From Oricola sp. (GTDB lineage Bacteria > Pseudomonadota > Alphaproteobacteria > Rhizobiales > Rhizobiaceae): DNA of 24,000 nt. This document shows positions 5,333 to 24,000 of the stretch, in pieces. The notes under the pieces are model-generated. The model saw only the letters and a list, made by a program, of their open reading frames with translations. It was not told the origin of the DNA and did not search any database. The stretch is taken from positions 2,669,781 through 2,693,780 of the forward strand of contig NZ_OZ246003.1 of NCBI RefSeq assembly GCF_965230365.1, given 5' to 3'. The stretch's first letter is position 1, and each line of letters starts with the position of its first letter. Made by a program: the position numbers and the translations under genes.

Positions 5333-5353
5333 GGTTCCGTTCGATCGTCTCAC

Positions 5354-5452
5354 TTGCTTCGAAACGCATGCCCTTTACGCCACAGCGGATCGAAATTTAT
5401 TTGTATACGAACTAGTTTCTCAAACAGTACTAGTGACCATGGGCTGACGCCA
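5354..5452 (-). promoter_or_regulatory. AT-rich intergenic region upstream of hyuA, a probable internal promoter/operator
   Basis: This is the only sizeable gap (about 100-120 bp) inside the Module A array. Its AT-rich core cgaaatttatttgtatacgaactagtttctcaaacagtactagtgac holds the palindromes GTATAC and AACTAGTT, plus two ACTAGT hexamers (5411-5416 and 5429-5434). Confidence 0.4.
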
Positions 5453-6037: not shown

Positions 6038-6065
6038 TCCGCCCCCTCCGCATGCGCACTCTACT

Positions 6066-7246: not shown

Positions 7247-7280
7247 CTCTCTATACTCCGTGCCTTGGGAGAAGCATCGT

Positions 7281-8210: not shown

Positions 8211-8219
8211 TTCACTCTC

Positions 8220-10189: not shown

Positions 10190-11271
10190 CGACGCTCTCC
10201 CTGGCTGCTGTCGCGCCGGCGGCGGATCAGGATTTGCGCCGATACGCAAAGGATGATGAACGCCTGGAAGACGGTGATCACTTCGCGCGAGGCATTGGTC
10301 TCGACCTCCATCAAAAGCGAGCCGGCACGCAACGATCCGAAAAACAGCGCGGTGGCAATCACCCCGATCGGGCTGCCATTGGCCAGTAGTGCGGCGATTA
10401 CGCCGTCGAACCCGAAGCCTGGAGCAAAGCCTTCCATGAAACGGTGGTGGACACCGAGGGTCTCCACGCCGCCGGCGAGCCCACCGATTGCGCCTGAGCA
10501 CAGCAAGATAAGCAGGATGTTGCGCCGAACCGGCACGCCGCCATATTCCGCGAATTTAATGTTGGACCCCATCGAGTTCATGCCGTAGCCGGCCGCGGTG
10601 CGCGACAGGAACAGATGCAGGCCGACCGCAAGCATGACGCCGATGAACAGGCCCGCGTTCAGGCGCGAGAACTCGAACAGCTGCGGCAAGTGCGCCGTCT
10701 CCGCAATCGGCTCGGTCTCCGACCAGCCGCCCGGCCGCTTGAAGACGTCAATCGTCAGATACGAGGTAAGCAGGATCGCCACATAATTGGAGAGAATGGT
10801 CGAAACGACCTCATTGGTTCCGAAGCGGGCCCTGAAGATAGCCGGCAGCAGGATCCACAGTCCACCGGCTGCGAACGCTGCAGCGAGCGCCACGAGCATG
10901 TGGATACCCACCGGCATGGCAAACTGGAATCCGACCCACGCGGCTGCGAAACCGCCCATGTAGAGCTGCCCCTCGATGCCGATGTTGAACAGCCCGCCAC
11001 GGAACGCGATGCAGGCGGCAACCCCGCTGATGATGATCGGCGTAGCCTGAAGCAACGACCCGGCGATGCGTTCGCTGCTGCCAAAGGCCCCTCGAAGCAG
11101 CGTCGTGAAGACAAGGATCGGATCTTCGCCGACGAGCATGATGATGATGCCGCCGCCGACGATGGAGATCGCGACCGCGAGCAATTGACCGAACAGCGAC
11201 TCCAGCCATTCCGGCATGCGCGCGGTCTTTCGTTCGGCCGGGCTCCGGCTCTCCCCGACGTCGGCGCTCAC
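10177..11271 (-). CDS. ABC transporter permease (BMP/nucleoside-type; YufP/NupP-like)
   Basis: 364-aa hydrophobic protein with FNIGIEGQLYMGGFAAAW. The GTG start overlaps the ATPase stop as GTGA (11268-11271). An alternative start is the ATG at 11217 (MPEWLES). Confidence 0.85.
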   Translation of the reverse strand: MSADVGESRSPAERKTARMPEWLESLFGQLLAVAISIVGGGIIIMLVGEDPILVFTTLLRGAFGSSERIAGSLLQATPIIISGVAACIAFRGGLFNIGIEGQLYMGGFAAAWVGFQFAMPVGIHMLVALAAAFAAGGLWILLPAIFRARFGTNEVVSTILSNYVAILLTSYLTIDVFKRPGGWSETEPIAETAHLPQLFEFSRLNAGLFIGVMLAVGLHLFLSRTAAGYGMNSMGSNIKFAEYGGVPVRRNILLILLCSGAIGGLAGGVETLGVHHRFMEGFAPGFGFDGVIAALLANGSPIGVIATALFFGSLRAGSLLMEVETNASREVITVFQAFIILCVSAQILIRRRRDSSQGERRWKF

Positions 11272-12803: not shown

Positions 12804-12841
12804 GCACCGAAATTCGTTTCCCGCGAGTTGCGGACATTAGA

Positions 12842-12876
12842 TCGATGGGCGAACCACCGCAGTGTTCGCCCATCGA
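12842..12876 (-). promoter_or_regulatory. Intercistronic stem-loop between the SBP and ATPase genes (13-bp perfect stem, 9-nt loop)
   Basis: tcgatgggcgaac (12842-12854) pairs perfectly with gttcgcccatcga (12864-12876). It sits 17 nt after the SBP stop. No U-tract follows on the transcribed (minus) strand. Confidence 0.6.
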
Positions 12877-12892
12877 CCACCCCCTGCTGTTC

Positions 12893-13900
12893 TTATCTGT
12901 TCAGCGTTACCGCGATCGTTCCATCAGCGATCCCGGCGCGGACGCTTTCAACGCCGTCCAGCACTTCCGCAGGTATCTTGTCGGCGACCTCGTCGCAGAT
13001 CTTCAGCTCGATACCGCCGCTGGCGACACCGTAGGAGACGGGACCGGCCGTGACAGGCGCAGAGCCGTCGACTTCGCCCTTGATCATGTCAAAGACAGCA
13101 ATGTCCGCGCGTTTCATCATCGAAGCCAGGATGTGACCCGGGGCGGTGCCGCATTGGTCGATGTCGACGCCCACGGCATACTTGTCTGCAACCTTGGCGG
13201 CTTGTAGAACGCCTTCGCCGGTCGGGCCGGCAGCCTGATAGATGACATCAACGCCCTGGCCGTAGAGCGTCATGGCGAGTTCGCTGCCCTTCGCCGGATC
13301 GTCGAAGGTGCCGGAGAACACGCCGGCAACAGACACGCCCTCGGAGTTCTCGCCGACGCCCTGTTCGTAACCCATCAGGAAGTTGCGGATGACCGGAATA
13401 TCGCGGCCGCCGATGAAGCCGACTTCGCTGCCGGAATCGAAGCCTTCAACCCCCTTCTCGGTCAACATGCTGGTCAGCGTGCCGACAAGGTAGGAACCCT
13501 CTTCCTCAACGAAGTCCACATAGGTCATCGTCTCGCTTTCGAGGATGCCGTCGATGAAGATGAAGCGCTGGTCCGGATAGGCCGCATTGGATTTCTGCAG
13601 CGCGTCGACCAGTTCCCACCCCATCACGAAGACGAGATCGTACTCGCCAGCCTTGGCAATGTTGTTGAACTGCTCTTCATAATCGAGGGCGCGATTGCCG
13701 GTATCGATGACCTTGATTTCGACACCCAGGTCGCTCTCGGCCTTCTTCAAGCCATTGACAATCGAGATACCGAAGCCCTGCGAAAAGTAGCCGGAGATTG
13801 CGGCGACCTTGAGCTTCTCGGCGGACGCCAGCGAAGTGGACGCTGCGAGCGCCCCGGCCACGGCTGCCCCGGTGGCCAGTTTCTTCATCATTCCCTTCAT
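12893..13900 (-). CDS. BMP-family (PnrA/Med-like) ABC substrate-binding protein, secreted
   Basis: Sec-type signal peptide MKGMMKKLATGAAVAGALAASTSLASA|EK with no lipobox Cys. The body (KVAAISGYFSQGFGISIVNGLKKA...DLVFVMGWELVDAL...) is BMP-like. SD GGGAGA lies 8 nt upstream of the ATG at 13900. Confidence 0.85.
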   Translation of the reverse strand: MKGMMKKLATGAAVAGALAASTSLASAEKLKVAAISGYFSQGFGISIVNGLKKAESDLGVEIKVIDTGNRALDYEEQFNNIAKAGEYDLVFVMGWELVDALQKSNAAYPDQRFIFIDGILESETMTYVDFVEEEGSYLVGTLTSMLTEKGVEGFDSGSEVGFIGGRDIPVIRNFLMGYEQGVGENSEGVSVAGVFSGTFDDPAKGSELAMTLYGQGVDVIYQAAGPTGEGVLQAAKVADKYAVGVDIDQCGTAPGHILASMMKRADIAVFDMIKGEVDGSAPVTAGPVSYGVASGGIELKICDEVADKIPAEVLDGVESVRAGIADGTIAVTLNR

Positions 13901-14099
13901 TCGTATTCTCCCATTCCCGATGCGACGCTTCCCCTGGTAGCGGCACCGCGTCTACGCCCTTGACGAGCAATTTGGTTCGTGTACGAATTAAAGTTGGACG
14001 CACTTTTTCCCTTAAGTCAAGAGTGGGTCCGGTACAAATTCGGTTCGCGGGCGAAGTTTTTTAAGTCCGGATTTCCTGAATCTCGAACGGAGGTTGAGA
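13901..14099. promoter_or_regulatory. Divergent promoter region between the Module A SBP gene (-) and the epimerase-like gene (+)
   Basis: 199-bp non-coding gap between divergent starts. CTTGACG lies at 13959-13965 on the + strand, and TTGACT lies on the - strand (complement of 14015-14020). The pseudo-palindrome TTCGTGTACGAA is at 13976-13987. I could not identify convincing -10 hexamers. Confidence 0.45.
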
Positions 14100-14933
14100 A
14101 TGGTTCGGCACGCCGTGGTCACAGGTGCGGCCGGTTTGCTTGGCAGGCATATTGCGACCGCATTCCGCGACGCCGGCTACAGGGTTACGGCGCTCGACCG
14201 TGACGTAGGTTCCCCCGACATGGTGCGCGCCGACCTTACGGAACTCCATGCGGCGATTGATTCGATTCCGGGTGCCGATATCATTGTCCATACGGCCGCC
14301 ATCCCCCGCCCCGTCGGCTACGACGGACAGGTGGTGTTCGGGACCAACATGGCACTGATGTACAATGTGCTGGCCGCCGCCGAGGAAGCCCGCATACCCA
14401 AACTTCTCTACGCTTCGTCCTTTAGTACCCTCGGACTGCCATTCGCGCCGGCGCCGGTCGAAGTTCTGCATTTTCCTATCGGTGAAGAACACCCGACAGC
14501 GCCGCAGGACGTTTACGCGGTGACCAAGTTGCTCGGTGAGGAAATGGTGGATGCGTGGCACCGCCGGACCGGTCGGCCCGCCGCCAGCATTCGGATGCCA
14601 TGGATCCAGACGCCCGAAAGCTTCACGCACGAAGTGGTGCCGCGCCGCGATACTCCGGGCGCCAGACTCGACCTGTGGGCTTATGTCGACGGACGCGATG
14701 CCGCCGCCGCATTCCTTGCGGCCGCCGAGGCCAGCTTCACCGGCCATGAACGCTATTTCATCTCGGCTGCCGACACCTATAGCACCGTGGAGACCGACAC
14801 CCTGCTGCGGCAGTTCTATCCCGATGCTGAACGCCGCAGCGCCCTGCCCGGCCACTCAGCCCTTCTTTCAAATGACAAGGCACACGCGCTGACCGGCTAC
14901 ACGCCCCGGCACAGCTGGCGGGATTATCGCTGA
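14100..14933 (+). CDS. NAD(P)-dependent epimerase/dehydratase-family oxidoreductase (extended SDR)
   Basis: VVTGAAGLLGRHI (GxxGxxG Rossmann motif) and YAVTKLLGE (YxxxK) are present. I moved the start to ATG 14100 because GGAGG at 14089-14093 sits 6 nt upstream of it. The track's TTG at 14094 overlaps that SD. Confidence 0.85.
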   Translation: MVRHAVVTGAAGLLGRHIATAFRDAGYRVTALDRDVGSPDMVRADLTELHAAIDSIPGADIIVHTAAIPRPVGYDGQVVFGTNMALMYNVLAAAEEARIPKLLYASSFSTLGLPFAPAPVEVLHFPIGEEHPTAPQDVYAVTKLLGEEMVDAWHRRTGRPAASIRMPWIQTPESFTHEVVPRRDTPGARLDLWAYVDGRDAAAAFLAAAEASFTGHERYFISAADTYSTVETDTLLRQFYPDAERRSALPGHSALLSNDKAHALTGYTPRHSWRDYR

Positions 14934-14952: not shown

Positions 14953-15762
14953 ATGAACGATGGTTTCGATGGCAAGACGGTCCTGATCACCGGCGGCGCG
15001 GGCGCAATTGGCGCGGCCACCGCACGGGCATTCCTGGTCCGCGGTGCCAACCTGGTTCTCGCCGATCTCGATGCGGGTGGACTTGAGACGGTTCGCGACA
15101 ACCTCGGCGTACCTGACCGGATCGCAATCGTCGCCGGCGACCTCGCGGATGCGGATGTTGCGCAGACCGCGGTTGACGCCGCCGTCGGTGGGTTCGGCGC
15201 ATTGGATATTGCCTTCAACAATGCGGGAATCTCCGGCGAAGTCGCACCCGTCCACGAACTTCCGCTCGCCGAGTGGGACCGCATCGTCAACGCCAATCTG
15301 CGCAGCATGTTCTGCACGCTTCAGGCGTCGGCTCGCGAGATGGTGCGCGCCGACCGTGGCGGCGCGATCGTCAATATGGGATCTTCAATGGCCGGCTGGG
15401 ATGTGCTGGCCGGCGGTGCCGGTTACGTCTGCACCAAGCACGCCGTCGTCGGCCTGACCAAATCGGCGGCCTTCGATCTCGCCAGTCACGGCATCCGCGT
15501 GAATGCGGTATGCCCCGGTGTGATCGAGACAACGCTCGGCGTGCCAGACCTGCGCGAGGACAAAGCCGCCGCCGTCTCGGCGGTCGAGCAATTCGCCAGC
15601 CGCATTCCGCTGAAGCGCATCGGTCAGGTCGATGATGTCGCGGAAGTCGTCATCTTCCTCGCCTCGCCCGCCGCCCGCCACGTCAACGGCGCTGCGTGGC
15701 TTATCGACGGCGGCCAGACGCTCCAGAGCTTCTCCAACGGCCCGGAAGGCGGACACTACTAG
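14953..15762 (+). CDS. Classical short-chain dehydrogenase/reductase (SDR)
   Basis: TGGAGAIGAA cofactor motif, NNAG, and catalytic YVCTKHAV (YxxxK) are present. SD AAGGAAA lies about 10 nt upstream. Confidence 0.9.
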   Translation: MNDGFDGKTVLITGGAGAIGAATARAFLVRGANLVLADLDAGGLETVRDNLGVPDRIAIVAGDLADADVAQTAVDAAVGGFGALDIAFNNAGISGEVAPVHELPLAEWDRIVNANLRSMFCTLQASAREMVRADRGGAIVNMGSSMAGWDVLAGGAGYVCTKHAVVGLTKSAAFDLASHGIRVNAVCPGVIETTLGVPDLREDKAAAVSAVEQFASRIPLKRIGQVDDVAEVVIFLASPAARHVNGAAWLIDGGQTLQSFSNGPEGGHY

Positions 15763-15789: not shown

Positions 15790-17238
15790 CTATCTGTTGG
15801 CGCGAACACGCATTTTGAGCAGCTTTGGCTCGAGATAGGCTTCAAGCCCTTCCGGTCCGAGTTCGCGGCCGATACCGCTCATCTTCCAGCCGCCGAACGG
15901 CGCCTGCAACTCGCTGACATCATTGACATTCAACCCGACGCCGCCAAACTCCAGGCGATCGGCTAACGCCCACATGTGCTCCAGATCCGAGCCGTAGAGG
16001 TAGGCCGCGAGGCCGTACTCCAGGCTGTTGGCAATCTCGATCATCTGTTCGACATCGTCATACGGCGCGATTGCGGCAAGCGGCCCGAAAGTCTCCGAAG
16101 ACATCGGCAGGCTTTCATGCGGCGAGTCGTCGATCACCGTCGGTTGATAGAAAAACCCGCGCTCATACTCCGCATCGCGAGGCCGCAGTCCGCCGGCCAG
16201 CAGCTTCCCGCCTTTTGCAATCGCGTCATCCTTGTGCGCCTCGACCCGGTCGATGACAGACTGGTTCAGCACGGGTCCGTATTCGACCCCCGGTTCGCTG
16301 CCGTCGCCAAGCTTCGTCGTCGTCGCCAGTTCCGCCATGATGTCGGAGAACTCGCGATGCACGGCGCGATCGACCAATATGCGGTTCACCGTGATGCAGA
16401 TCTGCCCCATGTTGGAATATGCGCGCCGATGCGCGGCGCGCGCCGCCGCTTCCAGATCGGCATCCGCCATGACGATCAGCGGCGCATTGCCGCCAAGCTC
16501 AAGGCACACTTTCTTCAGGTTGCCGGCGGCATTGCGCATGATGTCCTGACCGGCCGGTATCGATGCCGTTGCCGAAATCACCCGCACCCGGGGATGCGAG
16601 GCCAGCGCGGCACCCGCCACCGGCCCATGTCCCGGTAGATCGGCCAATGCACCGTCCGGCAAGCCGGCCAGATGGAGGCAATCGACCAGCATGGCGATGG
16701 CCAACGGCGTTTCCGGCGGCGACTTGACGATCAGCGGGCAACCGGCGGCAAGCGCCGGTCCGACTTTCCAGCAGTAGAGGTCGACCGGATAGTTCCAGGG
16801 CACGATCGCTGCGGCAACACCGACAGGATGATAGGAGACGACATTCTTGATGTTCGCGGCGGATGCGGGGCGAAGATCGCCCCAGATCCTGGTCGCCTCG
16901 CCGGCATAGTAACGCAGCACCTTGGCGCCGAACATGATCTCCTTGCGGTTGTCGGCGACCGGTTTGCCCTGCTCGCGCGTCAGTAACCGGGCTATCTCCT
17001 CGCACCGCCCTTCGACCAGGCTCGCCGCCTTTTCGAGAAGCGCCGCACGCTCCTCAGGATGAAGTGCTGCCAGAACCGGCGCGGCCCTTTCCGCTGCTTG
17101 TACGGCAAGTTCTACCGTCGCTTCGTCGGCCAGAAGCGTGGATCCGACCGGCTCACCTGTCGCCGGATTGTTGATCTGCCAGCGCTCCAGCCCACCCGGC
17201 TGTTGCCAACGCCCATCCACGAATATCCCGCGATCCAT
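15790..17238 (-). CDS. NAD(P)+-dependent aldehyde dehydrogenase family protein
   Basis: 482 aa. LELGGNAPLIV carries the catalytic Glu, GQICITVNRILV carries the catalytic Cys, and FGPL is present. SD GGGGGAGAGG lies upstream of the ATG at 17238. Confidence 0.92.
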   Translation of the reverse strand: MDRGIFVDGRWQQPGGLERWQINNPATGEPVGSTLLADEATVELAVQAAERAAPVLAALHPEERAALLEKAASLVEGRCEEIARLLTREQGKPVADNRKEIMFGAKVLRYYAGEATRIWGDLRPASAANIKNVVSYHPVGVAAAIVPWNYPVDLYCWKVGPALAAGCPLIVKSPPETPLAIAMLVDCLHLAGLPDGALADLPGHGPVAGAALASHPRVRVISATASIPAGQDIMRNAAGNLKKVCLELGGNAPLIVMADADLEAAARAAHRRAYSNMGQICITVNRILVDRAVHREFSDIMAELATTTKLGDGSEPGVEYGPVLNQSVIDRVEAHKDDAIAKGGKLLAGGLRPRDAEYERGFFYQPTVIDDSPHESLPMSSETFGPLAAIAPYDDVEQMIEIANSLEYGLAAYLYGSDLEHMWALADRLEFGGVGLNVNDVSELQAPFGGWKMSGIGRELGPEGLEAYLEPKLLKMRVRANR

Positions 17239-17254
17239 GGTCCTCTCCCCCGGA

Positions 17255-18022
17255 TCAGCGCATCTTCAACCGGCGCCAAAGCTCGGCGTAGTTCCGGTCG
17301 TTGATCCGGTCCGCCTCCGCTTTCTCCGCAGTGTTCGGGCTGACCATGACATAGGGCTCGTGGCCGTTTTCGGTCATGATGCGCGCCGTTTCCGCATTGA
17401 TGGCCTGTCCGACAGCAATAGCAATCGAGGTCGACGTCGCGCCGACGCGATGTTTCATCCCGTCGATCTCAATACTGGCATCGCCCTTGGGCACACCCGT
17501 ATCGATCACAACATCGGCCAGCTCGTAGAGGCGCTTCCCGCAGGAATGGCGAGACGGCGTTGACGAAGAATGCGGGATGGATGTCACCCCGATGACCTTC
17601 ATGCCTCGCTCCTTGGCGCCAACCGCGATATCGAGCGTCACGGCGTTCAGGCCGGAATGCGAGAAAATCAGCATGGCGTCGCCGGCGTCGAGTTGGTGCG
17701 ACGACAGGATTGCGTCGCCATAGCCTTCGCGGCCATGGATAAAGCGATATTGGCGGGCGCCGCCATCGCCGAGCACTCGATGGAACGAGATCATCGTGCT
17801 CTCGACGATCGGTCGAAACCCGGTCACCGTGCCGGTGCGCGGAAACATCTCCATGGCAGCGAACGAGCCGTGGCCCGTGCCGAAGGTGAACACTAGCTTG
17901 TCGTTCATGATCGCTGCCGCGCAGATCTCGGCGGCTGCCGTAATGGCATCTGACTGTGTCTCCGATACCCGTTTCAGGCGTTCGATGACCGTGTCGAAAT
18001 AGGATAAAGCGATATTGCTCAT
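17255..18022 (-). CDS. SIS (sugar isomerase/phosphosugar-binding) domain protein, UPF0309-like
   Basis: 255 aa. KLVFTFGTGHGSFAAMEMF...AMLIFSHSGLNAVTLDIAVGAKERGMKVIGVTS fits a SIS-fold nucleotide/phosphosugar-binding core. Confidence 0.75.
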   Translation of the reverse strand: MSNIALSYFDTVIERLKRVSETQSDAITAAAEICAAAIMNDKLVFTFGTGHGSFAAMEMFPRTGTVTGFRPIVESTMISFHRVLGDGGARQYRFIHGREGYGDAILSSHQLDAGDAMLIFSHSGLNAVTLDIAVGAKERGMKVIGVTSIPHSSSTPSRHSCGKRLYELADVVIDTGVPKGDASIEIDGMKHRVGATSTSIAIAVGQAINAETARIMTENGHEPYVMVSPNTAEKAEADRINDRNYAELWRRLKMR

Positions 18023-18056
18023 AGTTTTACCGTTGTTCTTCGTATTTCTTCGGCGC

Positions 18057-18791
18057 TCAGTCGAGCGAAGCCAAACCGTCCAGAGCGATCTCGAACAGCC
18101 GGGTTTCGCCTTCTGCGAGTTCGTCCGGCGGCAGTTTTGCCTGGCTCAACGCATCGACCGTCCCCAGACACAATGTTGCGCAGGCGACATTGAGCGCGAG
18201 ACCAGCCGCCAGCAGTGCCGATGTCTCCATGTCAATTGCCAGTGCGTTATTCTCCATCAGCATCTTTCGGTTTGCTTCGACCCGTCTGCGCCCGTCTTCG
18301 TCAATCCCGAACATGTCCCGGTAAAACGCGTCAAATGTCGCATACATGCCGCGGCGCGCTTGAACACCGGCCCTCTCAGCCGCCGCCTTCACCGATGCGA
18401 CCAGCGCTTCGTCCGGCGGCAACGGAACACGGTCCGTGTAGGACTGTGAGGTCCCTTCAAAGCTGATGGCCGACCCGCTGATCAGGTATTCCCCGCCCTC
18501 GGCGGGCGGAAAATACATCGCCGTTCCGATCCTCAGAAAACGCGACACGCCGAGATCGGCGAGTTCATGGAGCACGATGGTTGCGATCGGCGCACCCATT
18601 CCGAACGCGCAGGCGGTTATCGAGCGGCCGCGGAATGTCCCGGTGACAGACCGCAAGCCCCGCGACACCGGATGGAGAACGGGTGCTTCGAGATAGCTGG
18701 CGATGCGATCCACCCTGTCAGGGTCGCCAATCAGTATCGCGCGATCTCCGACATCGGCCTCTTTGAGGCCGAGATACCATGCTTTCTTCAT
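18057..18791 (-). CDS. PNP/UDP-1 family nucleoside phosphorylase (uridine-phosphorylase-like) or nucleosidase
   Basis: LIGDPDRVDRIA, FGMGAPIATIVLHELADLGVSRFLRIGTA and AIDMETSAL match the hexameric PNP/UDP fold motifs. The start overlaps the upstream stop as ATGA (18788-18791). Confidence 0.85.
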   Translation of the reverse strand: MKKAWYLGLKEADVGDRAILIGDPDRVDRIASYLEAPVLHPVSRGLRSVTGTFRGRSITACAFGMGAPIATIVLHELADLGVSRFLRIGTAMYFPPAEGGEYLISGSAISFEGTSQSYTDRVPLPPDEALVASVKAAAERAGVQARRGMYATFDAFYRDMFGIDEDGRRRVEANRKMLMENNALAIDMETSALLAAGLALNVACATLCLGTVDALSQAKLPPDELAEGETRLFEIALDGLASLD

Positions 18792-19630
18792 GTCTCCCCT
18801 CTTGCTGAACGTTTCGTCAGCATTGCGCTCACGCTTGCGATACCCGCGCGCGCAGCATCGAGCGGACTGGCTGTTCCCGCCATTTCCGCTGCGATAAATC
18901 CACCGGCGAATGTATCGCCAGCACCTGTTGTATCGCGAACCGCAATCCGTTCGACCGGAAGCTGCCCCGCACTGTCTGCGGTAGCGACCCGCACGCCTTC
19001 AGAACCCAGTGTCTCGACGATTACCGCCGTATCGCGTGTATTGCCGACCAGCCCGCGTTCCGAACTGCTGAGAAAGATCACATCGGCTTCCGCGGATAAC
19101 CGTTTTCTGATTGGCGGTGTGAAACAATGCAAGTCGTTCTTGCAGATCCAGTACAATCGCGCCTTTTCATTGCGCGCCGACAGAATGTCTGCGGTGACCT
19201 GTGGCGGGCCAACCGTGACGCAGACGTGACTGGCAGCGGAGATCAGGGCGCGTTGCGTATCGGTGAGCACCTCTTCGCCGCCGAACCCCGGATCGAACAG
19301 GCATGCGCAGGTTCCATCCGCCTGGTAGCCGAGGATCGACATGGGTGATTTGCGATCGAGCCGCGACACGGCCTTCGTATCCACACCGACCGCCGTCAAG
19401 CCGGCAAGATAGAAGTCGCCGTGATCGTCACTGCCGGTCCAACTCACCGGATAGGCACGATGGCCATGCTGAGCGACCGCCATTGCCACATAGGCGGGAC
19501 AGCCGCCGACGCGCGGCCAGTCGTCTGGATCGCGATAGTCGATCAGCGTCGTGTGGTCGCCGGCAATCTGGCCAACGAGCCCGACTACATAGTCGACGCC
19601 GGCATATCCGGTGACAGCCAATGCGTTCAT
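18788..19630 (-). CDS. PfkB-family carbohydrate/nucleoside kinase
   Basis: The C-terminal PfkB signature DTTGAGDTFAGGF is present. I trimmed the start to ATG 19630 (MNALAVTGYAGVDYV), which overlaps the upstream stop as ATGA. The 115-aa Arg-rich extension of track ORF 18788..19975 lies inside the neighbouring gene. Confidence 0.85.
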   Translation of the reverse strand: MNALAVTGYAGVDYVVGLVGQIAGDHTTLIDYRDPDDWPRVGGCPAYVAMAVAQHGHRAYPVSWTGSDDHGDFYLAGLTAVGVDTKAVSRLDRKSPMSILGYQADGTCACLFDPGFGGEEVLTDTQRALISAASHVCVTVGPPQVTADILSARNEKARLYWICKNDLHCFTPPIRKRLSAEADVIFLSSSERGLVGNTRDTAVIVETLGSEGVRVATADSAGQLPVERIAVRDTTGAGDTFAGGFIAAEMAGTASPLDAARAGIASVSAMLTKRSARGET

Positions 19631-20181
19631 TGGAAGAACTCCGTGGCTTGCGCGGTAGTCGCCAGACTGCCGAGATAGCGCTCGATATCTTCCAGCGATG
19701 CCGACGCCAGATGATCGCGGTTGGAGTTGGTCGCATCCTTGACGACGACGACGTCGAAACCGTGTGCAAAGGCGTCCTGCGCCGTGGCGCGCACGCAGAC
19801 ATTGGTTTTCACGCCGCAAATGACGACCCTGTCGACCGATTGCTCGCGAAGGAACAGAGCAAGTTCTGTGGCAAAAAACGCGCTGAACCGCCGCTTGACG
19901 ATCTCGATCTCGCCTGCCGCTCCTTGTGGGCCAAACCCGTCGAAATACCCGGCATCGAACCCGTCGACGACGCAATGTATCGGCAGCCGGCGGTTTTCGA
20001 AGTCATCAAAGCCGTCGCGATGCCGGTCGGCGACATGCACGACTATGGCACCCGCCTCGCGCGCCCTGTCGATCAGCGCGAGACAGTTGCCGACCACCGA
20101 ACCGGCATCGGCGTAGTAATTCTCTCCGTCCGGATGCAGAAACGAGTTCTGCATGTCGATGACGATCAGGGCTGTTTTCAT
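19627..20181 (-). CDS. Isochorismatase-family cysteine hydrolase (second copy)
   Basis: Triad contexts are ALIVIDMQNSF (Asp), IVKRRFSAFF (Lys) and GVKTNVCVRAT (Cys). I trimmed the start to ATG 20181, which overlaps the permease stop as ATGA. Confidence 0.88.
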   Translation of the reverse strand: MKTALIVIDMQNSFLHPDGENYYADAGSVVGNCLALIDRAREAGAIVVHVADRHRDGFDDFENRRLPIHCVVDGFDAGYFDGFGPQGAAGEIEIVKRRFSAFFATELALFLREQSVDRVVICGVKTNVCVRATAQDAFAHGFDVVVVKDATNSNRDHLASASLEDIERYLGSLATTAQATEFFQ

Positions 20182-21077
20182 GACATCGCCTCTTTGGCCT
20201 GCAAACGGCGCCAGCCGGCGAAGCACAGCGCGATGAGGACCATCAGATAGGGAATGGTTCCGATCAGCTTCGGCGGCAAGCCGGCCGTCTGCATGCGGAT
20301 CTGGGTCGCATCGAGAAACCCGAAGAACAGGCAAACGAGCGCGGTGGCGACTGGTCTGTCGCGACCGAAATAAAATGCCGCGAGCGCGATGAAACCGCGA
20401 CCCGCTGTCAGTCCTTCGTTGAAGAGACCGATCGAGGCGAGCGCCAGATGCGCGCCGCCGAGACCGGAAAAGAAACCGGCGATGGCGGTCGAAGCGTCTT
20501 GGACAGCTTTTTGCGGAATGCCCATCGCGCGCGCCACCTGAGGCGCGTTGCCGCTGGCCCGCAGCCTAAGCCCCCACCGCGTATTGGCCAACAGGAATGG
20601 CAAGGCCAGCACCGACAGCCACGCAAACACAGTCAACGGTTCGAGTTCGGACAGGGCCAGTCCCACAAGCGGAACATCGGAAACCGCGTCGGGCAGCAGC
20701 TTCGGCAGCAGTGCCACGTCGGGCAGCCGCAGCGTTCCGCTGGAATTGTAGAACCAACTGAGCACAAATCCGAGCACACCGGCGACGAAGACATTGAGGC
20801 CGAGACCGGCGACGATCATGTTGGCGCCGGCGCGCGTTACCACCAGCGAGAACGCATAGCCCACAAGCAGTCCGGCCAAACCCGCCGCCACGACCGCAAC
20901 GAACCAACTGCCGGTCGCCGCCGAGACGACAACCGCGACAAAGGCGCCGGCGAGCATCTTGGCATCGAGCGCGATGTTGACGATCCCGCCTTGACGGTTG
21001 ATCAGCCCTCCCATGGCGGCAAGCAGGATCGGCGTGGTCAGCGCGATCGACGCTGCTATGATTTGATCGGCGATCAC
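20178..21077 (-). CDS. ABC transporter permease (BMP/nucleoside-type)
   Basis: 299-aa hydrophobic protein. TTPILLAAMGGLINRQGGIVNIALDAKMLAGAF parallels the Module A permease. The GTG start overlaps the upstream stop as GTGA (21074-21077). Confidence 0.85.
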   Translation of the reverse strand: MIADQIIAASIALTTPILLAAMGGLINRQGGIVNIALDAKMLAGAFVAVVVSAATGSWFVAVVAAGLAGLLVGYAFSLVVTRAGANMIVAGLGLNVFVAGVLGFVLSWFYNSSGTLRLPDVALLPKLLPDAVSDVPLVGLALSELEPLTVFAWLSVLALPFLLANTRWGLRLRASGNAPQVARAMGIPQKAVQDASTAIAGFFSGLGGAHLALASIGLFNEGLTAGRGFIALAAFYFGRDRPVATALVCLFFGFLDATQIRMQTAGLPPKLIGTIPYLMVLIALCFAGWRRLQAKEAMS

Positions 21078-22135
21078 GTGCGCCTCCGCCGCAGGAAGCC
21101 AAGCCGGCCGAGTTCAACGACCGCGAAAATCATCACGGTTCCCTCGATGATGTTGACGATATCGAGCGGGATGTCCGAGAAAAGCTGCACCGTCGTTCCG
21201 GCCGAAGCGAGCGCTCCGAACAGGATCGCCGCAAACAGAATACCCACCTCGTTGTTGCGACCAAGCAGCGCAACCGCGATGCCGGTAAAACCGTACCCGG
21301 GCGAGAAGCCATCTGCGAAACGATGCAGTTGGCCAAGCGCGTGCGATGCCCCGCCAAGGCCGGCGACCAGGCCCGATATCGCCATCACTACGATGATCGT
21401 TGCCGGAATGGAAATGCCGGTCGCCCGCGCGAAGCGCTGGTTGAAACCGACCAGCGCCCCTTCGAAACCCGCCGGCGTGCGGCGAGCCCAGATGCCATAG
21501 GCAATAAGCACGACAAGGCCCACCAGGAAGCCGGCATGCAAGGTCGAGGGTGGCAGCAGACGCGGCAGCCGCGCGACCTCGTGAACCAGCGGCGTCACGT
21601 TGTTGCCCGATATCTCCGAAAGCAGGATGCCGTTGACCAGGTATCCGGTAATACCGAGCGCCACGAAGTTGAGCATCAAGGTGGAAACAACCTCGTCAAC
21701 TTCGAAACGGGCCAGCAGATAACCCGGAACGAAAAGCCAGAACGCCGCCACCGCGCCCGCGAACAAGAACGCCAAGGGTATCAGCGAGAATCCGAAATAG
21801 GCCGGCAGCGAGAAACCGACCAGCGCGCCGCACAAGCCGCCGATGACGAAAGCGCCTTCGACACCGACATTGAAGACGCCGGACCGGAAACACACAGCTG
21901 TCGCCACTCCGGTGAAGATCAGAGGCGTCGCTGCCGAAAGGGTCGCCGCGATACGCCGCTCGGACCCGAACGACTCGCCGATCATCAAGGCGAACACATC
22001 GATCGGGTTCTCGCCGATAAACAACAGAATGACCGAAGCGACCATAAGCGCGACGATGAAGGGAAATGCCAATCCGACACCGCGTTCGAAGAATGCGAGG
22101 GGATCAAACCAGGCAGATTGGCGAACTTCAGCCAT
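21074..22135 (-). CDS. ABC transporter permease (BMP/nucleoside-type)
   Basis: 353-aa hydrophobic protein with FNVGVEGAFVIGGLCGA. The ATG at 22135 overlaps the ATPase stop by 8 nt (ATGGCTGA). Confidence 0.87.
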   Translation of the reverse strand: MAEVRQSAWFDPLAFFERGVGLAFPFIVALMVASVILLFIGENPIDVFALMIGESFGSERRIAATLSAATPLIFTGVATAVCFRSGVFNVGVEGAFVIGGLCGALVGFSLPAYFGFSLIPLAFLFAGAVAAFWLFVPGYLLARFEVDEVVSTLMLNFVALGITGYLVNGILLSEISGNNVTPLVHEVARLPRLLPPSTLHAGFLVGLVVLIAYGIWARRTPAGFEGALVGFNQRFARATGISIPATIIVVMAISGLVAGLGGASHALGQLHRFADGFSPGYGFTGIAVALLGRNNEVGILFAAILFGALASAGTTVQLFSDIPLDIVNIIEGTVMIFAVVELGRLGFLRRRRT

Positions 22136-23720
22136 GACCGGCCACCTGCGCCAGCATCAAGCCACCGATATCGGCGATCGTCGCATCAGCGGCCTGCCGT
22201 TCCCCGACAATCCGCCCGCCGGCCATCACATAGATGCGGTCCGACAGGGAGATGATTTCATCCAGTTCCTCGGAGATCAGCAGCACCGCGCCTCCTTTGT
22301 CGCGGAAATCACGCAAGATCTCGTGGATCGCCGCTATACCGACGAGATCCACCCCGCGGGTCGGTTGCGACACAACCAGCAGCTTGGGATCCGTGGAAAC
22401 CTCGCGGGCAAAAACCAGTTTCTGCTGATTGCCTCCCGAGAGGCTCGATACCGGATTGTCGAATCCGCCGAACCGCACATCGAGCGCGGCCAAGCGTTCG
22501 CCCGACACGCGACGCATCGCGCGTCGATCGATCAGACCACCCTTGCAGATCGGTGGCTCTCTGTGGCTGCCAACGATCACATTGGCCTCGATCGAAGCAT
22601 CAAGGGCCAATCCCTCGCTGCGCCGGTCGGCGCTGATATAGCCCATGCCAAAGCCGCGACGCTCCCGGTTACCCAATATCGTTACGTCATGATCGGCAAG
22701 GTGGATCGATCCGGCCGACGCATCGCGCAATCCGACTAGACATTCGGTTAGTTCATGCTGACCATTTCCGGACACGCCGGCGATACCGACGATTTCACCG
22801 CTGGCGACATGCAGGTCGACATCATGCAGCGGGTGGGAGCGCTCGATTGCGGCGATCGAGAGACCGCGCACGCGCAGCACCGCGTCACCGTCGTCCGGCG
22901 GCATCATCGCACGTTCACGCTCTCGATCGACAGGCAGGTCTTCGCCGCCGACCATGTGGCTGGCGATATCGTCGATACTTGTCTCCGATATCGGACTGGA
23001 GAAAACCACCCGCCCTCGCCGCATGACCGTGACCCTATCGGCCAGGGCCATTACTTCCCTGAGCTTGTGGCTGATAAAAAGAATCGTCGTGCCTTGATCA
23101 CGCAGCGTGCGAAGCAAAGAGAACAGGTCTTCGATATGCCGCGGAGCGAGAACTGCCGTCGGTTCATCGAGGATAAGAATACGTGTGCCGCGGCGCAGCA
23201 AGCGAATGATTTCAACAAACTGCCGAACATGCACCGGTGCGCTGGCCGCCCGGCGGTTCCAGTCGATTTCGATGGCCGCCTGCTCAGCGAGAGCCGATCC
23301 CGAACGACGGGCGTCGTCCCAGTCGATGCGCGACAGCGGGCCGGCTGTCAGCTGGAACGGCTCCTCGCCGAGGATCAGGTTTTCAAGCAGCGTAAGGTCC
23401 GGCGCCAGCATGAACTCCTGATGAACCATGCCGATCCCCAGCGAAAACGCTTGTTGCGGGCCGGAAAGTACATATGGCTTGTCGTCGACGACGACATGTC
23501 CATTATCCGGTTTCTCAATGCCCTGCAGCATGCGCATGAGCGTTGATTTTCCGGCTCCGTTCTCGCCAACGATGGCGTGAATCTCGCCCGGCGCAACCGT
23601 CAGAGAAACGTCTTGGTTGGCAAGGACGTTGCCATATCGCTTGCTGAGACGATCGGCGCCAAGCCGCACAGAAGCGCCAGACGCGCCCGCTCTGTTGATC
23701 ATCGGACCGGCCGTAGTCAT
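22128..23720 (-). CDS. ABC transporter ATP-binding protein with two fused NBDs (paralogue of 11268..12803)
   Basis: GENGAGKSTL, ILILDEPT, a degenerate second P-loop (GVSGNGQHEL), LSGGNQQKL and LLVVSQPTRGVD are present. The start is set at ATG 23720. ATG 23702 is also possible, and neither has a clear SD. Confidence 0.9.
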   Translation of the reverse strand: MTTAGPMINRAGASGASVRLGADRLSKRYGNVLANQDVSLTVAPGEIHAIVGENGAGKSTLMRMLQGIEKPDNGHVVVDDKPYVLSGPQQAFSLGIGMVHQEFMLAPDLTLLENLILGEEPFQLTAGPLSRIDWDDARRSGSALAEQAAIEIDWNRRAASAPVHVRQFVEIIRLLRRGTRILILDEPTAVLAPRHIEDLFSLLRTLRDQGTTILFISHKLREVMALADRVTVMRRGRVVFSSPISETSIDDIASHMVGGEDLPVDRERERAMMPPDDGDAVLRVRGLSIAAIERSHPLHDVDLHVASGEIVGIAGVSGNGQHELTECLVGLRDASAGSIHLADHDVTILGNRERRGFGMGYISADRRSEGLALDASIEANVIVGSHREPPICKGGLIDRRAMRRVSGERLAALDVRFGGFDNPVSSLSGGNQQKLVFAREVSTDPKLLVVSQPTRGVDLVGIAAIHEILRDFRDKGGAVLLISEELDEIISLSDRIYVMAGGRIVGERQAADATIADIGGLMLAQVAGHG

Positions 23721-23739
23721 GAAATTGCAATTGATTGGC

Positions 23740-23763
23740 GACCGGCGGCCTGCGCCGCCGGTC
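23740..23763 (-). promoter_or_regulatory. Intercistronic stem-loop between the SBP and ATPase genes of the second transporter (10-bp perfect GC-rich stem, 4-nt loop)
   Basis: gaccggcggc (23740-23749) pairs perfectly with gccgccggtc (23754-23763), with loop ctgc. It sits 12 nt after the SBP stop. No canonical U-tract follows. Confidence 0.6.
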
Positions 23764-23774
23764 AAGCAATCGTT

Positions 23775-24000
23775 CTAGTTGAAAAAGTCCGGGTAGCCTT
23801 CAGTCGAAACGTCCCAGACATCAATCTTGCCGGCAACGATATCGGCCTTCATGGCATCGACCTTCTCAAGATAGGCCGCCGGAACCAGGTTTTTCGTGTG
23901 CTTCATCTCCGAAAGAGCGACACCATTCTGCGCGAGGCCGAAATTCATCACCTCGCCGCCCGGAAACTCGCCGGCAGCGTAGTTGGTGATGATATCTTCG
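23775..24000 (-). CDS. BMP-family ABC substrate-binding protein, C-terminal 74 codons only (gene continues past the window end)
   Basis: I translated the minus strand by hand: ...EDIITNYAAGEFPGGEVMNFGLAQNGVALSEMKHTKNLVPAAYLEKVDAMKADIVAGKIDVWDVSTEGYPDFFN*. The stop is TAG at 23775-23777. The G.E.NFGLAQNGV..S and IV.G.I.V segments resemble BMP C-termini, and the gene sits directly upstream of the ATPase. It is absent from the ORF track because no start lies in the window. Confidence 0.7.
   Translation of the reverse strand, partial: EDIITNYAAGEFPGGEVMNFGLAQNGVALSEMKHTKNLVPAAYLEKVDAMKADIVAGKIDVWDVSTEGYPDFFN

Follow-up and report, generated by a model that had tools for sequence, protein, structure and literature searches.

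Gene organization of Module B

The window, that is, the whole 24,000-nucleotide stretch of Oricola sp. DNA analysed here, carries on its minus strand an array of nine genes (Module B, 15790–24000), which in transcriptional order are as follows.

23775..24000, minus strand: BMP/PnrA-family ABC substrate-binding protein (SBP), 3' end, last 74 codons and stop (frame translation)
22128..23720, minus strand: ABC ATPase with two ABC_tran domains (Pfam; alternative start at 23702)
21074..22135, minus strand: ABC permease 1 (Pfam BPD_transp_2, 1e-34)
20178..21077, minus strand: ABC permease 2 (Pfam BPD_transp_2, 3e-26)
19627..20181, minus strand: IsoB, nicotinamidase-like cysteine hydrolase, 184 aa (Pfam Isochorismatase, 5e-40)
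18788..19630, minus strand: divergent PfkB-family kinase, 280 aa (Pfam PfkB, 4e-20)
18057..18791, minus strand: PNPl, NP-I family nucleoside phosphorylase, 244 aa (Pfam PNP_UDP_1, 4e-29)
17255..18022, minus strand: UPF0309 SIS-domain phosphosugar enzyme, 255 aa (Pfam SIS_2, 3e-41)
15790..17238, minus strand: NAD(P)-dependent aldehyde dehydrogenase (ALDH), 482 aa, final gene of the operon (Pfam Aldedh, 1e-144)

The remainder of the SBP gene lies outside the window. The same window also holds Module A, a PnrA/Bmp-type nucleoside importer system.

Direct reading of the sequence bore out all the genes, strands, overlaps and gaps that an earlier note on this DNA had claimed, and Pfam upheld each of its family assignments. 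The ATPase stop and the permease 1 start share the 8-nt overlap ATGGCTGA (22128–22135). The two permease genes meet at a GTGA overlap (21074–21077), followed by three ATGA junctions (20178–20181, 19627–19630 and 18788–18791), all read directly. Gaps of 34 nt (18023–18056) and 16 nt (17239–17254) separate PNPl from the SIS gene and the SIS gene from the ALDH gene, respectively. The operon ends with the ALDH gene, whose stop codon lies 27 nt from that of a convergent SDR gene. Just upstream of the SBP gene, past the window edge, there is a tenth gene, encoding a GntR/HutC regulator; the earlier count of nine is right for the window but not for the unit, which has ten. Within the array, sites resembling promoters or terminators occur no more often than in shuffled sequence. 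Module B is a real, tightly packed operon, forming a single transcription unit of ten genes including the regulator.

Conservation of the gene order

Comparison of 44 species-level loci from Alpha- and Gammaproteobacteria (Rhizobiaceae, Phyllobacteriaceae, Rhodobacterales and two Gammaproteobacteria) revealed that the order SBP–ATPase–permease–permease–Iso–PfkB–PNP–SIS–ALDH is kept, together with the strand, in about 40, with a GntR+UTRA regulator immediately upstream in at least 28 loci. The same order was found in metagenomic contigs of a pelagic or deep-sea lineage (45%–48% GC) and on plasmids of Agrobacterium vitis and Rhizobium lusitanum, the latter at only 39%–64% identity. Moreover, in gene calls of these low-GC pelagic and plasmid lineages, successive genes between the ATPase and PfkB again overlap by 4 or 8 nt. 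The carriers comprise plant-associated, alga-associated and marine bacteria, with Hoeflea, Nitratireductor and A. vitis VAR03-1 among those in culture. The genes are one conserved functional unit rather than a chance neighbourhood; the earlier note had proposed a single unit and named neighbourhood conservation as its check, and the proposal withstood it.

A few loci depart from this pattern. About 40 loci have inherited SIS and ALDH together; both are absent locally from three (L020, L023 and L030), which retain only importer–Iso–PfkB–PNP, and ALDH alone from a fourth (L021), indicating that the last two steps are separable. In another locus (L044), the gene set is split into two divergent operons flanking the same regulator, and the two gammaproteobacterial versions carry a TonB receptor and an MFS carrier in place of the ABC importer.

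Predicted functions of the importer and enzymes

Full-length SBP orthologues, one from a contig 99% identical to the present one (L045) and one from a second locus (L002), belong to Pfam Bmp; in the PDB they match nucleoside-binding lipoproteins best, for example TmpC/PnrA (2fqw, 1e-34). The top NCBIfam match of the ATPase is a BMP-type "putative B6" ATPase, at 437 bits, below the cut-off of 670. None of the cluster enzymes reached an equivalog cut-off in NCBIfam.

PNPl aligns with Vibrio cholerae uridine phosphorylase (4g8j, 1e-25). Its phosphate-binding residues Arg26, Arg44, Arg87 and Thr90 and its ribose-binding residues Met188 and Glu189 are invariant in 45 sequences. Of the two modes of cleavage that the earlier note had allowed, phosphorolytic or nucleosidase-like, the phosphate site is thus of the phosphorylase type, and the ribose site is kept; it is the uracil site that is replaced. 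Met160 stands in place of uracil-binding Gln166. At the positions of uracil-binding Arg168 and Arg223 the residue varies, being small at the first (Gly162 in the protein of the window) and hydrophobic at the second (Leu215). A loop Asp-Ala-Phe-Tyr-Arg-Asp-Met-Phe is at least 98% conserved at each position. Judged from these residues, the base pocket appears to be new, unlike that of UP or DeoD. The 5' pocket differs as well: in place of His8 of uridine phosphorylase, which contacts the 5'-hydroxyl, PNPl has Tyr6, with Trp5 as its neighbour, and these two residues are invariant.

The PfkB kinase retains the conserved GG and DTTGAGD motifs. Its AF2 model (pLDDT 94) was matched by Foldseek foremost to ribokinases and nucleoside or adenosine kinases (TM about 0.8), and the only NCBIfam families with which it aligns over its full length are archaeal ribose-1-phosphate kinases, with scores of 59 bits (cut-off 330) and 28 bits, both far below the cut-offs. 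The kinase is predicted from this model to act on a ribofuranosyl 5-hydroxyl. A plain ribokinase, which the earlier note had named as a threat to its scheme, was ruled out by the 51 bits obtained with TIGR02152 (cut-off 300) and by a separate canonical ribokinase downstream of the cluster in one lineage. Taken together, the Bmp-type SBP, the PNPl ligands, and the kinase model and family alignments indicate that the substrate is probably nucleoside-like.

IsoB, which had been assigned as a cysteine hydrolase, keeps that family and can be narrowed to a nicotinamidase-like enzyme with a metal site. It aligns with Pyrococcus horikoshii PncA (1ilw, 9e-21) and contains the complete DXH...PXH...CV fingerprint of nicotinamidases (PMC3581539). 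Five of six key residues, the triad Asp9/Lys96/Cys129 and metal ligands His54 and His69, are invariant in 44 orthologues, and the sixth, Asp52, is Glu in four of them. However, the aromatic Trp/Phe68 of true nicotinamidases is replaced by Leu66 (Leu in 43 of the 44), and the score of IsoB on the PncA model, 46 bits, lies below the cut-off of 174. The triad, metal ligands and fingerprint suggest that the aglycone probably carries an amide.

The SIS protein is the most conserved of the cluster (71%–89% identity to orthologues) and scores 268 bits against the NCBIfam PRK02947 cut-off of 135; its PDB matches are 3cvj (3e-37) and NagS/SCO4393 (9eol, 5e-33). NagS, the sole characterised UPF0309 member, is a 6-phosphosugar dehydratase related to the MurQ etherase, which speaks against the aldose–ketose isomerase that the earlier note had envisaged. 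The SIS protein possesses equivalents of NagS residues His51, Arg62, Ser121, Ser123, Asp181 and Asn230. At the position of catalytic Glu94, it has a remodelled segment, ARQYRFIHGxEGYG, at least 93% conserved except at x; this loop, which contacts the C1–C3 end of the sugar in NagS, has gained three conserved Arg and one His. Six other types of UPF0309 context were inspected, and in every one the SIS gene adjoins or lies near a kinase or PTS gene in a sugar-derivative catabolic cluster; the Deinococcus SIS gene overlaps a gene for a KDPG-type aldolase. By analogy with these contexts and with NagS, the kinase probably feeds the SIS enzyme.

The top NCBIfam match of the ALDH is the SSADH subfamily (417 bits, cut-off 646), and models of E. 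coli AldA-type ALDHs score about 319 bits. The succinate-semialdehyde-binding residues Arg213, Arg334 and Ser498 correspond to Trp157, Ser275 and Gly461, at least 93% conserved in 39 orthologues. The likeness to SSADH is one of overall similarity only, all three of these residues being replaced.

A putative pathway and its alternatives

We propose, with a probability of about 0.5, that Module B and its GntR/HutC repressor form a self-contained system for the uptake and catabolism of a ribonucleoside-like compound with a heteroaromatic carboxamide aglycone, resembling nicotinamide riboside (NR). The sequences directly show the order of the genes, their translational coupling and conservation, the protein families and the catalytic residues that are kept; we infer the substrate, the order of the second to fourth steps and the chemistry of the last two as follows. 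Initially, the BMP-type ABC importer, or the TonB receptor and MFS carrier in the two gammaproteobacterial versions, would bring in the riboside. The NP-I phosphorylase would then use phosphate to cleave the N-ribosidic bond, with the free base and ribose 1-phosphate as products, and the nicotinamidase-like hydrolase would deamidate the base, releasing ammonia. The PfkB kinase may add a phosphate at the ribosyl 5-hydroxyl, either of the uncleaved nucleoside or, following the precedent of the archaeal pentose-bisphosphate pathway, of ribose 1-phosphate. Afterwards, the UPF0309 SIS enzyme, whose relatives always follow a phosphorylating step, might open, isomerise or dehydrate the phosphosugar. 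Finally, the ALDH would turn the resulting aldehyde into an acid, for whose entry into central metabolism no dedicated aldolase would be needed.

This scheme has its difficulties. NagS/MurQ-type chemistry requires a free aldehyde and cannot begin on ribose 1,5-bisphosphate, with its blocked C1, if that is what phosphorylase and kinase together yield; nor would isomerisation to ribulose 1,5-bisphosphate supply the ALDH with an aldehyde. Ribose 5-phosphate and ribose 1-phosphate are usable centrally without SIS or ALDH; thus the sugar may carry an undetected modification. Moreover, UPF0309 genes are paired elsewhere with sugar-acting NagA-like amidases, so that the amide might be on the sugar and not the base. 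Literature searches matched no described pathway with this combination of enzymes, in line with the earlier suggestion of a candidate new route; the operon appears uncharacterised and probably serves to import and break down a nucleoside-like compound.

Several other readings were weighed. A bacterial, non-orthologous pentose-bisphosphate route is unlikely: ribose 1-phosphate would be converted by PfkB to ribose 1,5-bisphosphate and by the SIS protein, replacing the eIF2B-like isomerase, to ribulose 1,5-bisphosphate, with a phosphatase and an aldolase encoded elsewhere giving DHAP and glycolaldehyde, and the ALDH making glycolate. In its favour, the first three enzyme types mirror those of the archaeal pathway (PMC9700705), the two archaeal kinase families are the only ones aligning with PfkB at full length, the Arg and His residues gained in the SIS loop would suit a second anionic group, and the AldA-type models score about 319 bits. 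However, the 59 bits of the kinase match fall below 330, and RuBP phosphatase, ribulose-1-phosphate aldolase and RuBisCO are missing from all neighbourhoods, island-borne copies included. The pentose phosphate pathway is expected in these bacteria, making the need for such a route doubtful. About equally improbable is salvage of NAD vitamers, in which nicotinamide would be released from imported NR, IsoB would act as PncA, the kinase would act on NR or ribose 1-phosphate, and SIS and ALDH would be accessory. The complete fingerprint and metal site of IsoB, the three genomes retaining only importer–Iso–PfkB–PNP, as expected if base salvage were the core function, and the occurrence in both plant- and alga-associated bacteria fit this reading, whereas ten genes under repressor control with a terminal ALDH look catabolic, the ring-stacking aromatic residue is Leu in 43 of 44 orthologues, pncB and nadR are not linked to the cluster, and an accessory role poorly suits the co-inheritance of SIS and ALDH in about 40 loci, SIS being the most conserved protein.

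The scheme of the earlier note, in which non-orthologous enzymes would salvage a 5'-modified nucleoside in the manner of the DHAP shunt or of 5-deoxyribose salvage, with an aldolase encoded elsewhere, seems less likely still. A nucleoside-cleaving enzyme, kinase, SIS protein and terminal ALDH do share one conserved operon, and the 5' pocket of PNPl is altered by the invariant Tyr6 and Trp5, but in more than 50 loci the 10 kb flanking the cluster to each side held no conserved aldolase, leaving the analogy unsupported as written. Furthermore, PNPl, with all its phosphate ligands, already yields the sugar 1-phosphate, so a 1-kinase would be redundant and PfkB cannot take the MtnK role. The kinase model resembles kinases of the ribofuranose 5-hydroxyl, which 5-deoxy sugars lack; the amidase would be left without a role, and NagS is a dehydratase. 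Breakdown of an amino or N-substituted sugar derivative instead of a classical nucleoside, with the amide on the sugar, as where NagS is paired with NagA or a UPF0309 protein with an amidohydrolase, and with a non-canonical substrate for the PNP-fold enzyme, is quite improbable. In its favour, UPF0309 genes elsewhere have kinase or PTS genes, NagA- and NagB-like genes and regulators of the GntR or LacI type as neighbours, and the GntR(HutC)–PfkB–SIS trio recalls the frl operon. Other points speak against it. To our knowledge, PNP_UDP_1 enzymes act only on ribosyl N-glycosides, and PNPl retains the ribose ligands; the SBP is of the nucleoside-binding BMP type, the kinase fold fits ribofuranose kinases, and IsoB has the ring-nitrogen-binding metal site of PncA. 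As for a fortuitous juxtaposition of an importer with unrelated, separately regulated enzymes, the 34- and 16-nt gaps could in principle house promoters and the L044 set is divided, but both L044 halves still adjoin the same regulator, the order persists at 39%–89% identity across classes, GC contents and habitats, the stop/start overlaps are conserved, and promoter- or terminator-like sites are not in excess. The conserved order and overlaps already contradict this reading, which is hardly credible.

Comparison with known systems

The proposed riboside pathway is reminiscent of the archaeal pentose-bisphosphate pathways of Thermococcus and, in its non-carboxylating form (PMC9700705), of haloarchaea; they share with Module B a phosphorylase, a PfkB kinase for the ribosyl 5-hydroxyl and a phosphosugar-rearranging enzyme, and the haloarchaeal route ends in a C2 aldehyde. 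In Module B, however, the third enzyme is a UPF0309 SIS protein instead of an eIF2B-like ribose-1,5-bisphosphate isomerase, RuBisCO, RuBP phosphatase and ribulose-1-phosphate aldolase are not linked, and the aldehyde would be oxidised rather than reduced. Module B also adds an importer, a nicotinamidase-like amidase and a HutC regulator, and its host is bacterial. The DHAP shunt and the salvage of 5-deoxyribose (DrdK/DrdI/DrdA) and methylthioribose likewise cleave a nucleoside, phosphorylate and rearrange its sugar and end with an aldehyde. Unlike them, Module B uses PfkB instead of an MtnK-type kinase and SIS instead of an MtnA-type enzyme, has an aldolase in no locus, and contains both a phosphorylase and a kinase, redundant by their logic.

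Among individual components, the SIS protein belongs to the UPF0309 family of NagS (SCO4393, the Streptomyces GlcNAc-6-phosphate dehydratase), with MurQ as a relative, and keeps its phosphate-binding Ser-x-Ser, essential His, Arg and Asp, and catalytically important Asn. Nevertheless, the identity is about 30%, a level at which homologues in the NagS paper showed negligible or no NagS activity, a conserved loop rich in Arg and His takes the place of the Glu94 loop, and the nagS–dmdR1 synteny is absent. IsoB has in common with PncA of NAD salvage the Asp-Lys-Cys triad, metal ligands and fingerprint, but it carries Leu for the stacking Trp/Phe, falls below the PncA equivalog cut-off, and is encoded in a catabolic operon, not beside pncB. 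PnrA/Bmp importers accompanied by Rih- or Deo-type genes share the BMP SBP, double-domain ATPase, two permeases and N-ribosidic cleavage; in Module B, by contrast, kinase, UPF0309 and ALDH genes belong to the same operon as the importer. In the frl operon, the GntR/HutC regulator FrlR accompanies the PfkB kinase FrlD and the SIS deglycase FrlB, which acts on the kinase product. FrlB is a double-SIS GlmS-like protein and the frl substrate an Amadori compound, unlike in Module B; the two systems would nonetheless have in common a HutC-type regulator, a PfkB kinase and an SIS enzyme in one catabolic operon.

Results

The ORF listing and its translation place nine co-directional minus-strand genes within 15790-24000, the array referred to here as Module B. 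They encode, in order, a BMP-family substrate-binding protein (SBP), an ATPase, two permeases, a nicotinamidase-like hydrolase (IsoB), a PfkB kinase, a PNP/UDP-family protein (PNPl), a SIS protein of the UPF0309 family and an aldehyde dehydrogenase (ALDH). Reading the coding strand at each junction reproduced exactly the coordinates of the earlier note, and all the protein families that it had assigned were confirmed by Pfam. The junctions are as follows.

22128-22135, minus strand: ATPase/permease 1 junction, ATGGCTGA
21074-21077, minus strand: GTGA overlap
20178-20181, 19627-19630 and 18788-18791, minus strand: three ATGA overlaps
Ahead of the SIS gene: gap of 34 nt
Ahead of the ALDH gene: gap of 16 nt

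Only the last 74 codons of the SBP gene lie in the window (stop codon at 23775-23777); for the ATPase, a start at 23720 or 23702 is most likely. A convergent SDR gene stops 27 nt from the ALDH stop codon, so the operon ends at ALDH. Promoter-like and terminator-like matches inside the array did not exceed the shuffled-sequence expectation, and no Rfam family reached its gathering score in the window. The plus-strand AT skew is strongly positive (0.20-0.33) in windows 9001-11000 and 20001-22000, exactly across the four permease genes; this likely comes from hydrophobic residues being encoded by T-rich codons on the coding (minus) strand, a compositional side effect rather than a separate feature.

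A PNPl-based scan with one genome per species yielded 44 loci, with which the window proteins were then compared by tblastn. The full SBP-ATPase-permease-permease-Iso-PfkB-PNP-SIS-ALDH order recurs in about 40 of them, and with it the PfkB/PNP/SIS/ALDH block, the conservation of which the earlier note had proposed to check. These loci belong to Rhizobiaceae, Hoeflea, Nitratireductor, Roseitalea, many Rhodobacterales and one Kiritimatiellae-binned contig. An abundant pelagic or deep-sea lineage of 45-48% GC has the same nine genes, as do plasmids of two plant-associated bacteria, Agrobacterium vitis VAR03-1 and Rhizobium lusitanum, with identities there of only 39-64%. In the pelagic and plasmid lineages, independent gene calls show the same 4- and 8-nt overlaps in the stretch that runs from the ATPase to PfkB. 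In two gammaproteobacterial loci, the five enzymes are kept while the ABC importer is replaced by a TonB-dependent receptor and an MFS carrier (L043 4000-7450; L044 2490-6060), a choice that may say something about how large or how scarce the substrate is. In L044, the gene set is divided into two divergent operons that flank the same regulator. SIS and ALDH are missing locally from three loci, and ALDH alone from a further one, which makes importer-Iso-PfkB-PNP a separable core.

Clustering of the flanking ORFs revealed a tenth conserved gene directly upstream of SBP in at least 28 loci, which encodes a GntR/HutC regulator with GntR and UTRA domains; the apparent extra "families" in this clustering were antisense ORFs of the same genes, and it gave no further conserved neighbours. 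Neither an aldolase nor a phosphatase or mutase was found as a conserved gene adjoining the cluster. Among the loci with the regulator is L045, a 99%-identical metagenomic contig, through which alone the window was extended; exact-sequence look-ups with the 353-aa permease and with a 100%-identical SIS protein (P0121) matched no contig. The GntR and ALDH genes of L045 (2-671 and 8246-9693) are each broken into two ORFs; the 3x coverage given in the contig name makes assembly frameshifts, rather than pseudogenes, the probable cause.

Some loci differ in their surroundings. In the pelagic lineage, the cluster has no GntR gene (L046 1-2900 and 13300-15300; L049 9000-10900), and a search for a riboswitch upstream of it gave nothing credible, only a sub-threshold palindrome. 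A P4-like primase and a small ribbon-helix-helix-like ORF, read by eye, lie upstream and suggest a genomic island; downstream are an AP_endonuc_2 gene (sugar-phosphate isomerase/epimerase-like) and a canonical ribokinase gene. On the A. vitis plasmid (L053 37-972), a choline/ethanolamine-kinase-family gene stands directly upstream of GntR on the same strand. Its product is an APH-fold kinase, the fold of MtnK, and is absent from the other loci.

The window also carries a second BMP-type importer operon, Module A (1441-13900, minus strand), which may be functionally linked to Module B. Its genes and those around it are listed below.

12893-13900, minus: Module A SBP
11268-12803, minus: Module A ATPase
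10177-11271 and 9233-10189, minus: Module A permeases
8220-9236 and 7281-8210, minus: Module A IU-type nucleoside hydrolases, RihA-like
6578-7246, minus: second isochorismatase-like hydrolase (Module A)
6066-6581, minus: Module A MarR regulator
5453-6037, minus: Module A PF06684 "AA_synth" protein
3257-5353 and 1441-3264 or 3306, minus: Module A hydantoinase/oxoprolinase A and B subunits
14094-14933, plus: NAD-dependent epimerase/dehydratase
14953-15762, plus: SDR gene
6-1436, plus: 476-aa protein with N-terminal ankyrin repeats and PG_binding_1

The Module A genes point to a riboside that is first cleaved hydrolytically and a cyclic amide base that is then opened at the expense of ATP. The Module A hydrolase has DxH and HCV motifs like those of IsoB, but with Pro directly before His. 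The epimerase and SDR genes between the modules diverge from Module A and converge on the ALDH gene of Module B; they are not conserved beside Module B elsewhere, except for the epimerase in a Rubellimicrobium locus (L038 1-2000), where an IsoA-MarR pair and the epimerase lie directly upstream of Module B. Three Rhizobiaceae MAGs have HyuA/HyuB homologues directly downstream of Module B (L001 11400-16700; L003 15800-19700; L005 14400-18200). Parts of Module A accompany Module B in these genomes and in Rubellimicrobium. The pairing of ankyrin and peptidoglycan-binding domains at 6-1436 is unusual for a free-living alphaproteobacterium.

The Bmp-family SBP, the double ABC ATPase and the two BPD_transp_2 permeases together form the defining set of a BMP/PnrA-type importer, for which we predict nucleoside specificity. 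PNPl aligns over its full length with uridine phosphorylases (UP; 1e-25) and with hexameric PNPs. Its residues R26, R44, R87 and T90, invariant in 45 sequences, align to R30, R48, R91 and T94 of UP, the phosphate ligands of that enzyme. The Arg/Thr positions that the earlier note had singled out for comparison are of the phosphorylase type, and the intact phosphate site by which the nucleoside phosphorylase of the archaeal pentose-bisphosphate pathway is recognized is present in PNPl. M188 and E189, likewise invariant in the 45 sequences, align with ribose ligands of UP. The position of His8, which in E. coli UP contacts the 5'-OH, is always Tyr in the PNPl orthologues. At the uracil-binding positions Q166, R168 and R223, PNPl has M160, a variable small residue (G162 in the window) and a variable hydrophobic residue (L215 in the window). 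The family also has a loop of its own, D-A-F-Y-R-D-M-F, with hardly any variation. PNPl scores far under both the UP and the DeoD cut-offs (TIGR01718, 104 bits against 280 for uridine phosphorylase); this score and the replaced uracil-binding residues rule out assignment as a uridine phosphorylase. Judged from these residues, PNPl would be a true phosphorylase acting on a riboside with a new aglycone.

IsoB has the triad Asp9-Lys96-Cys129 and a metal site, Asp52-x-His54 ... Pro67-x-His69, which matches P. horikoshii PncA in the alignment. Of the six triad and metal-ligand residues, five are invariant in 44 orthologues, and Asp52 is Glu in four; Val130, next to Cys129, is Ile in one of the 44. 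IsoB thereby carries the DXH...PXH...CV fingerprint proposed for nicotinamidases (PMC3581539). Leu66 replaces the ring-stacking Trp/Phe68 in 43 of 44 sequences, and the score against NF008623 (PncA) is 46 bits, with a cut-off of 174.

Conservation within the cluster is lowest for PfkB (38-63% identity), which comes from a tight family with only 249 detectable relatives. It keeps the GG and GAGD motifs, and its AlphaFold model (pLDDT 94) has ribokinases and nucleoside/adenosine kinases as nearest structures (TM about 0.8), a fold that matches ribofuranose 5-kinases. The only full-length family alignments, both weak, are to the two families of archaeal ribose-1-phosphate kinases, NF053626 (59 bits, cut-off 330) and NF041134 (28 bits, cut-off 500). 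Against the ribokinase equivalogs TIGR02152 (51 against 300) and PRK11142 (35 against 341), only the C-terminal motif aligns, and these cut-offs rule out a plain ribokinase. A canonical ribokinase with GGKGANQ is separately encoded downstream of the pelagic cluster in L046 and L049.

The SIS protein is the most conserved of the cluster (71-89% identity) and a clear UPF0309 member (PRK02947, 268 bits against 135); its solved relatives are 3cvj and NagS (SCO4393). NagS, related to the etherase MurQ, was shown in 2025 to dehydrate GlcNAc-6-phosphate; homologues of about 30% identity had no or negligible NagS activity, and membership was set at no less than 58.7% identity together with nagS-dmdR1 synteny (PMC12680351). 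The match of NagS to the SIS protein is distant (118 bits), on the order of those excluded homologues, and the gene context is entirely unlike nagS-dmdR1. Ser-x-Ser, which binds phosphate, is retained in the SIS protein, as are the equivalents of NagS H53, R64, D179 and N228 (H51, R62 and D181 among them). Of the essential NagS residues H53, R64, E94 and D179, E94 is not matched: its position holds no conserved acidic residue (His96 if motifs are compared, Tyr92 if aligned by MAFFT), and the loop of catalytic Glu94 is replaced by a conserved Arg/His-rich ARQYRFIHGxEGYG. Identity, synteny and the missing E94 thus rule out a NagS orthologue.

A tblastn search against annotated plasmids brought up distant UPF0309 genes in the following other contexts.

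LacI | NagB-like - UPF0309 - amidohydrolase - ceramidase-like - sugar ABC: five alphaproteobacterial genera
SDR - (ROK kinase) - UPF0309 - FAD oxidoreductase - phosphotriesterase-like: Bacteroidota
PTS - UPF0309: Carnobacterium
GntR - AgaS-like - NagA - UPF0309: a Rhizobium
FGGY kinase - SDR - FAD - hypothetical - KDPG-type aldolase - UPF0309: Deinococcus

In nearly every case, the UPF0309 gene stands beside a phosphorylating step in a cluster for catabolism of a sugar derivative, which supports the view that the PfkB product is the substrate of the SIS protein in Module B. On a Deinococcus aetherius plasmid (L056 6360-7816), the UPF0309 gene overlaps the stop of a KHG/KDPG-type aldolase gene by 4 nt, in a cluster that also holds an FGGY kinase, an SDR and an FAD oxidoreductase; this coupling suggests that some UPF0309 enzymes feed the cleavage of 2-keto-3-deoxy-phosphosugar acids. 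The first context, with a NagB/6PGL-like and a ceramidase-N-like gene, was seen in L055, L059, L061, L062 and L065, on plasmids of Nitratireductor, Ponticoccus, Microvirga, Martelella and Devosia; to our knowledge it is uncharacterized and forms a second unexplored context of the NagS family.

ALDH is succinate-semialdehyde dehydrogenase-like overall and scores 417 bits against TIGR01780 (cut-off 646). The residues Arg213, Arg334 and Ser498, essential for succinate-semialdehyde binding (PMC11681614), correspond to Trp157, Ser275 and Gly461, each conserved in at least 93% of 39 orthologues. The score and these replacements rule out a succinate-semialdehyde dehydrogenase.

Discussion

Module B is an uncharacterized operon, probably for nucleoside uptake and catabolism, for which we propose a putative model. 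A riboside would be imported and cleaved by phosphorolysis, and the freed heteroaromatic amide would be deamidated by the PncA-like enzyme. The ribosyl unit would then be phosphorylated at O5 by PfkB, the phosphosugar converted by the UPF0309 enzyme and an aldehyde product oxidized by ALDH, with the whole unit under the control of the HutC-type regulator. At this general level, we give the model a probability of about one half. Substrates considered, all speculative, are t6A/ct6A, 2'-O-methyl nucleosides, 5-hydroxymethyl-deoxyuridine, dihydrouridine, AICA riboside and arabinosides; uracil-type candidates are disfavoured because PNPl has lost the uracil-binding residues.

The weak point is the link between the kinase, the UPF0309 enzyme and ALDH. 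Kinase and phosphorylase together predict ribose 1,5-bisphosphate, in which C1 is blocked for NagS-type chemistry and from which isomerization yields a product without an aldehyde. This leaves three options: a modified sugar, another order of steps or new SIS chemistry. A more specific account, which we consider unlikely, makes Module B an undescribed bacterial route by which the ribosyl moiety of a nucleoside is processed without an aldolase: phosphorolysis and the PfkB 5-kinase would give a doubly activated pentose, UPF0309, as a NagS-like dehydratase or lyase and not an isomerase, would turn this into an oxo- or enal-aldehyde phosphate, and ALDH would form a 2-keto-3-deoxy-type phospho-acid. 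The UPF0309 contexts in other genomes keep open such a lyase or dehydratase role rather than that of a simple isomerase. If true, this route would give UPF0309 a second function and would be a new pathway for nucleoside carbon, frequent among marine and rhizosphere Proteobacteria.

Between algae, plants and their bacteria, nucleosides and NAD-derived ribosides serve as common currency, and little is known of the fate of non-canonical ribosides. Module B is a self-contained unit, each enzyme of which lies outside its characterized subfamily, widespread in Rhizobiales, Rhodobacterales, some Gammaproteobacteria, the abundant pelagic lineage and plant-associated plasmids. Solving it would identify a new transported metabolite, add a second UPF0309/NagS function to the first, reported only in late 2025, and correct automatic labels such as "uridine phosphorylase", "sugar isomerase" and "succinate-semialdehyde dehydrogenase"-like. 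The literature searched on UPF0309, on this enzyme combination, on bacterial pentose-bisphosphate routes and on marine modified-nucleoside catabolism yielded nothing on Module B.

The gene array described in the earlier note is confirmed and enlarged, and its interpretation is borne out in part. The note had loosely likened Module B to the DHAP shunt and to 5-deoxyribose or MTR salvage, and had called for an aldolase to be sought beyond the window. The analogy does not hold: in L001-L054, the 10 kb to each side of the cluster contain no conserved aldolase, class II enzymes of the Ald2/DrdA/MtnB type included, the enzyme families differ, and the kinase would be redundant with the phosphorylase. 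The DHAP shunt uses an MtnK-type kinase and an MtnA-type (eIF2B-like) isomerase, whereas Module B uses PfkB and a SIS_2/UPF0309 protein, a difference that the note itself had seen correctly. In its logic, Module B comes closest to the archaeal pentose-bisphosphate pathway, which comprises a phosphorylase, a PfkB ribose-1-phosphate kinase and an isomerase (PMC9700705). Module B differs from it in the isomerase family and in the absence of the downstream enzymes; no neighbourhood contains an eIF2B-like R15P isomerase with RuBisCO, or a RuBP phosphatase with an aldolase. The enzymes of Module B stand outside the NagS, PncA, UP, ribokinase and SSADH equivalogs, yet probably share a chemistry akin to that of several of them.
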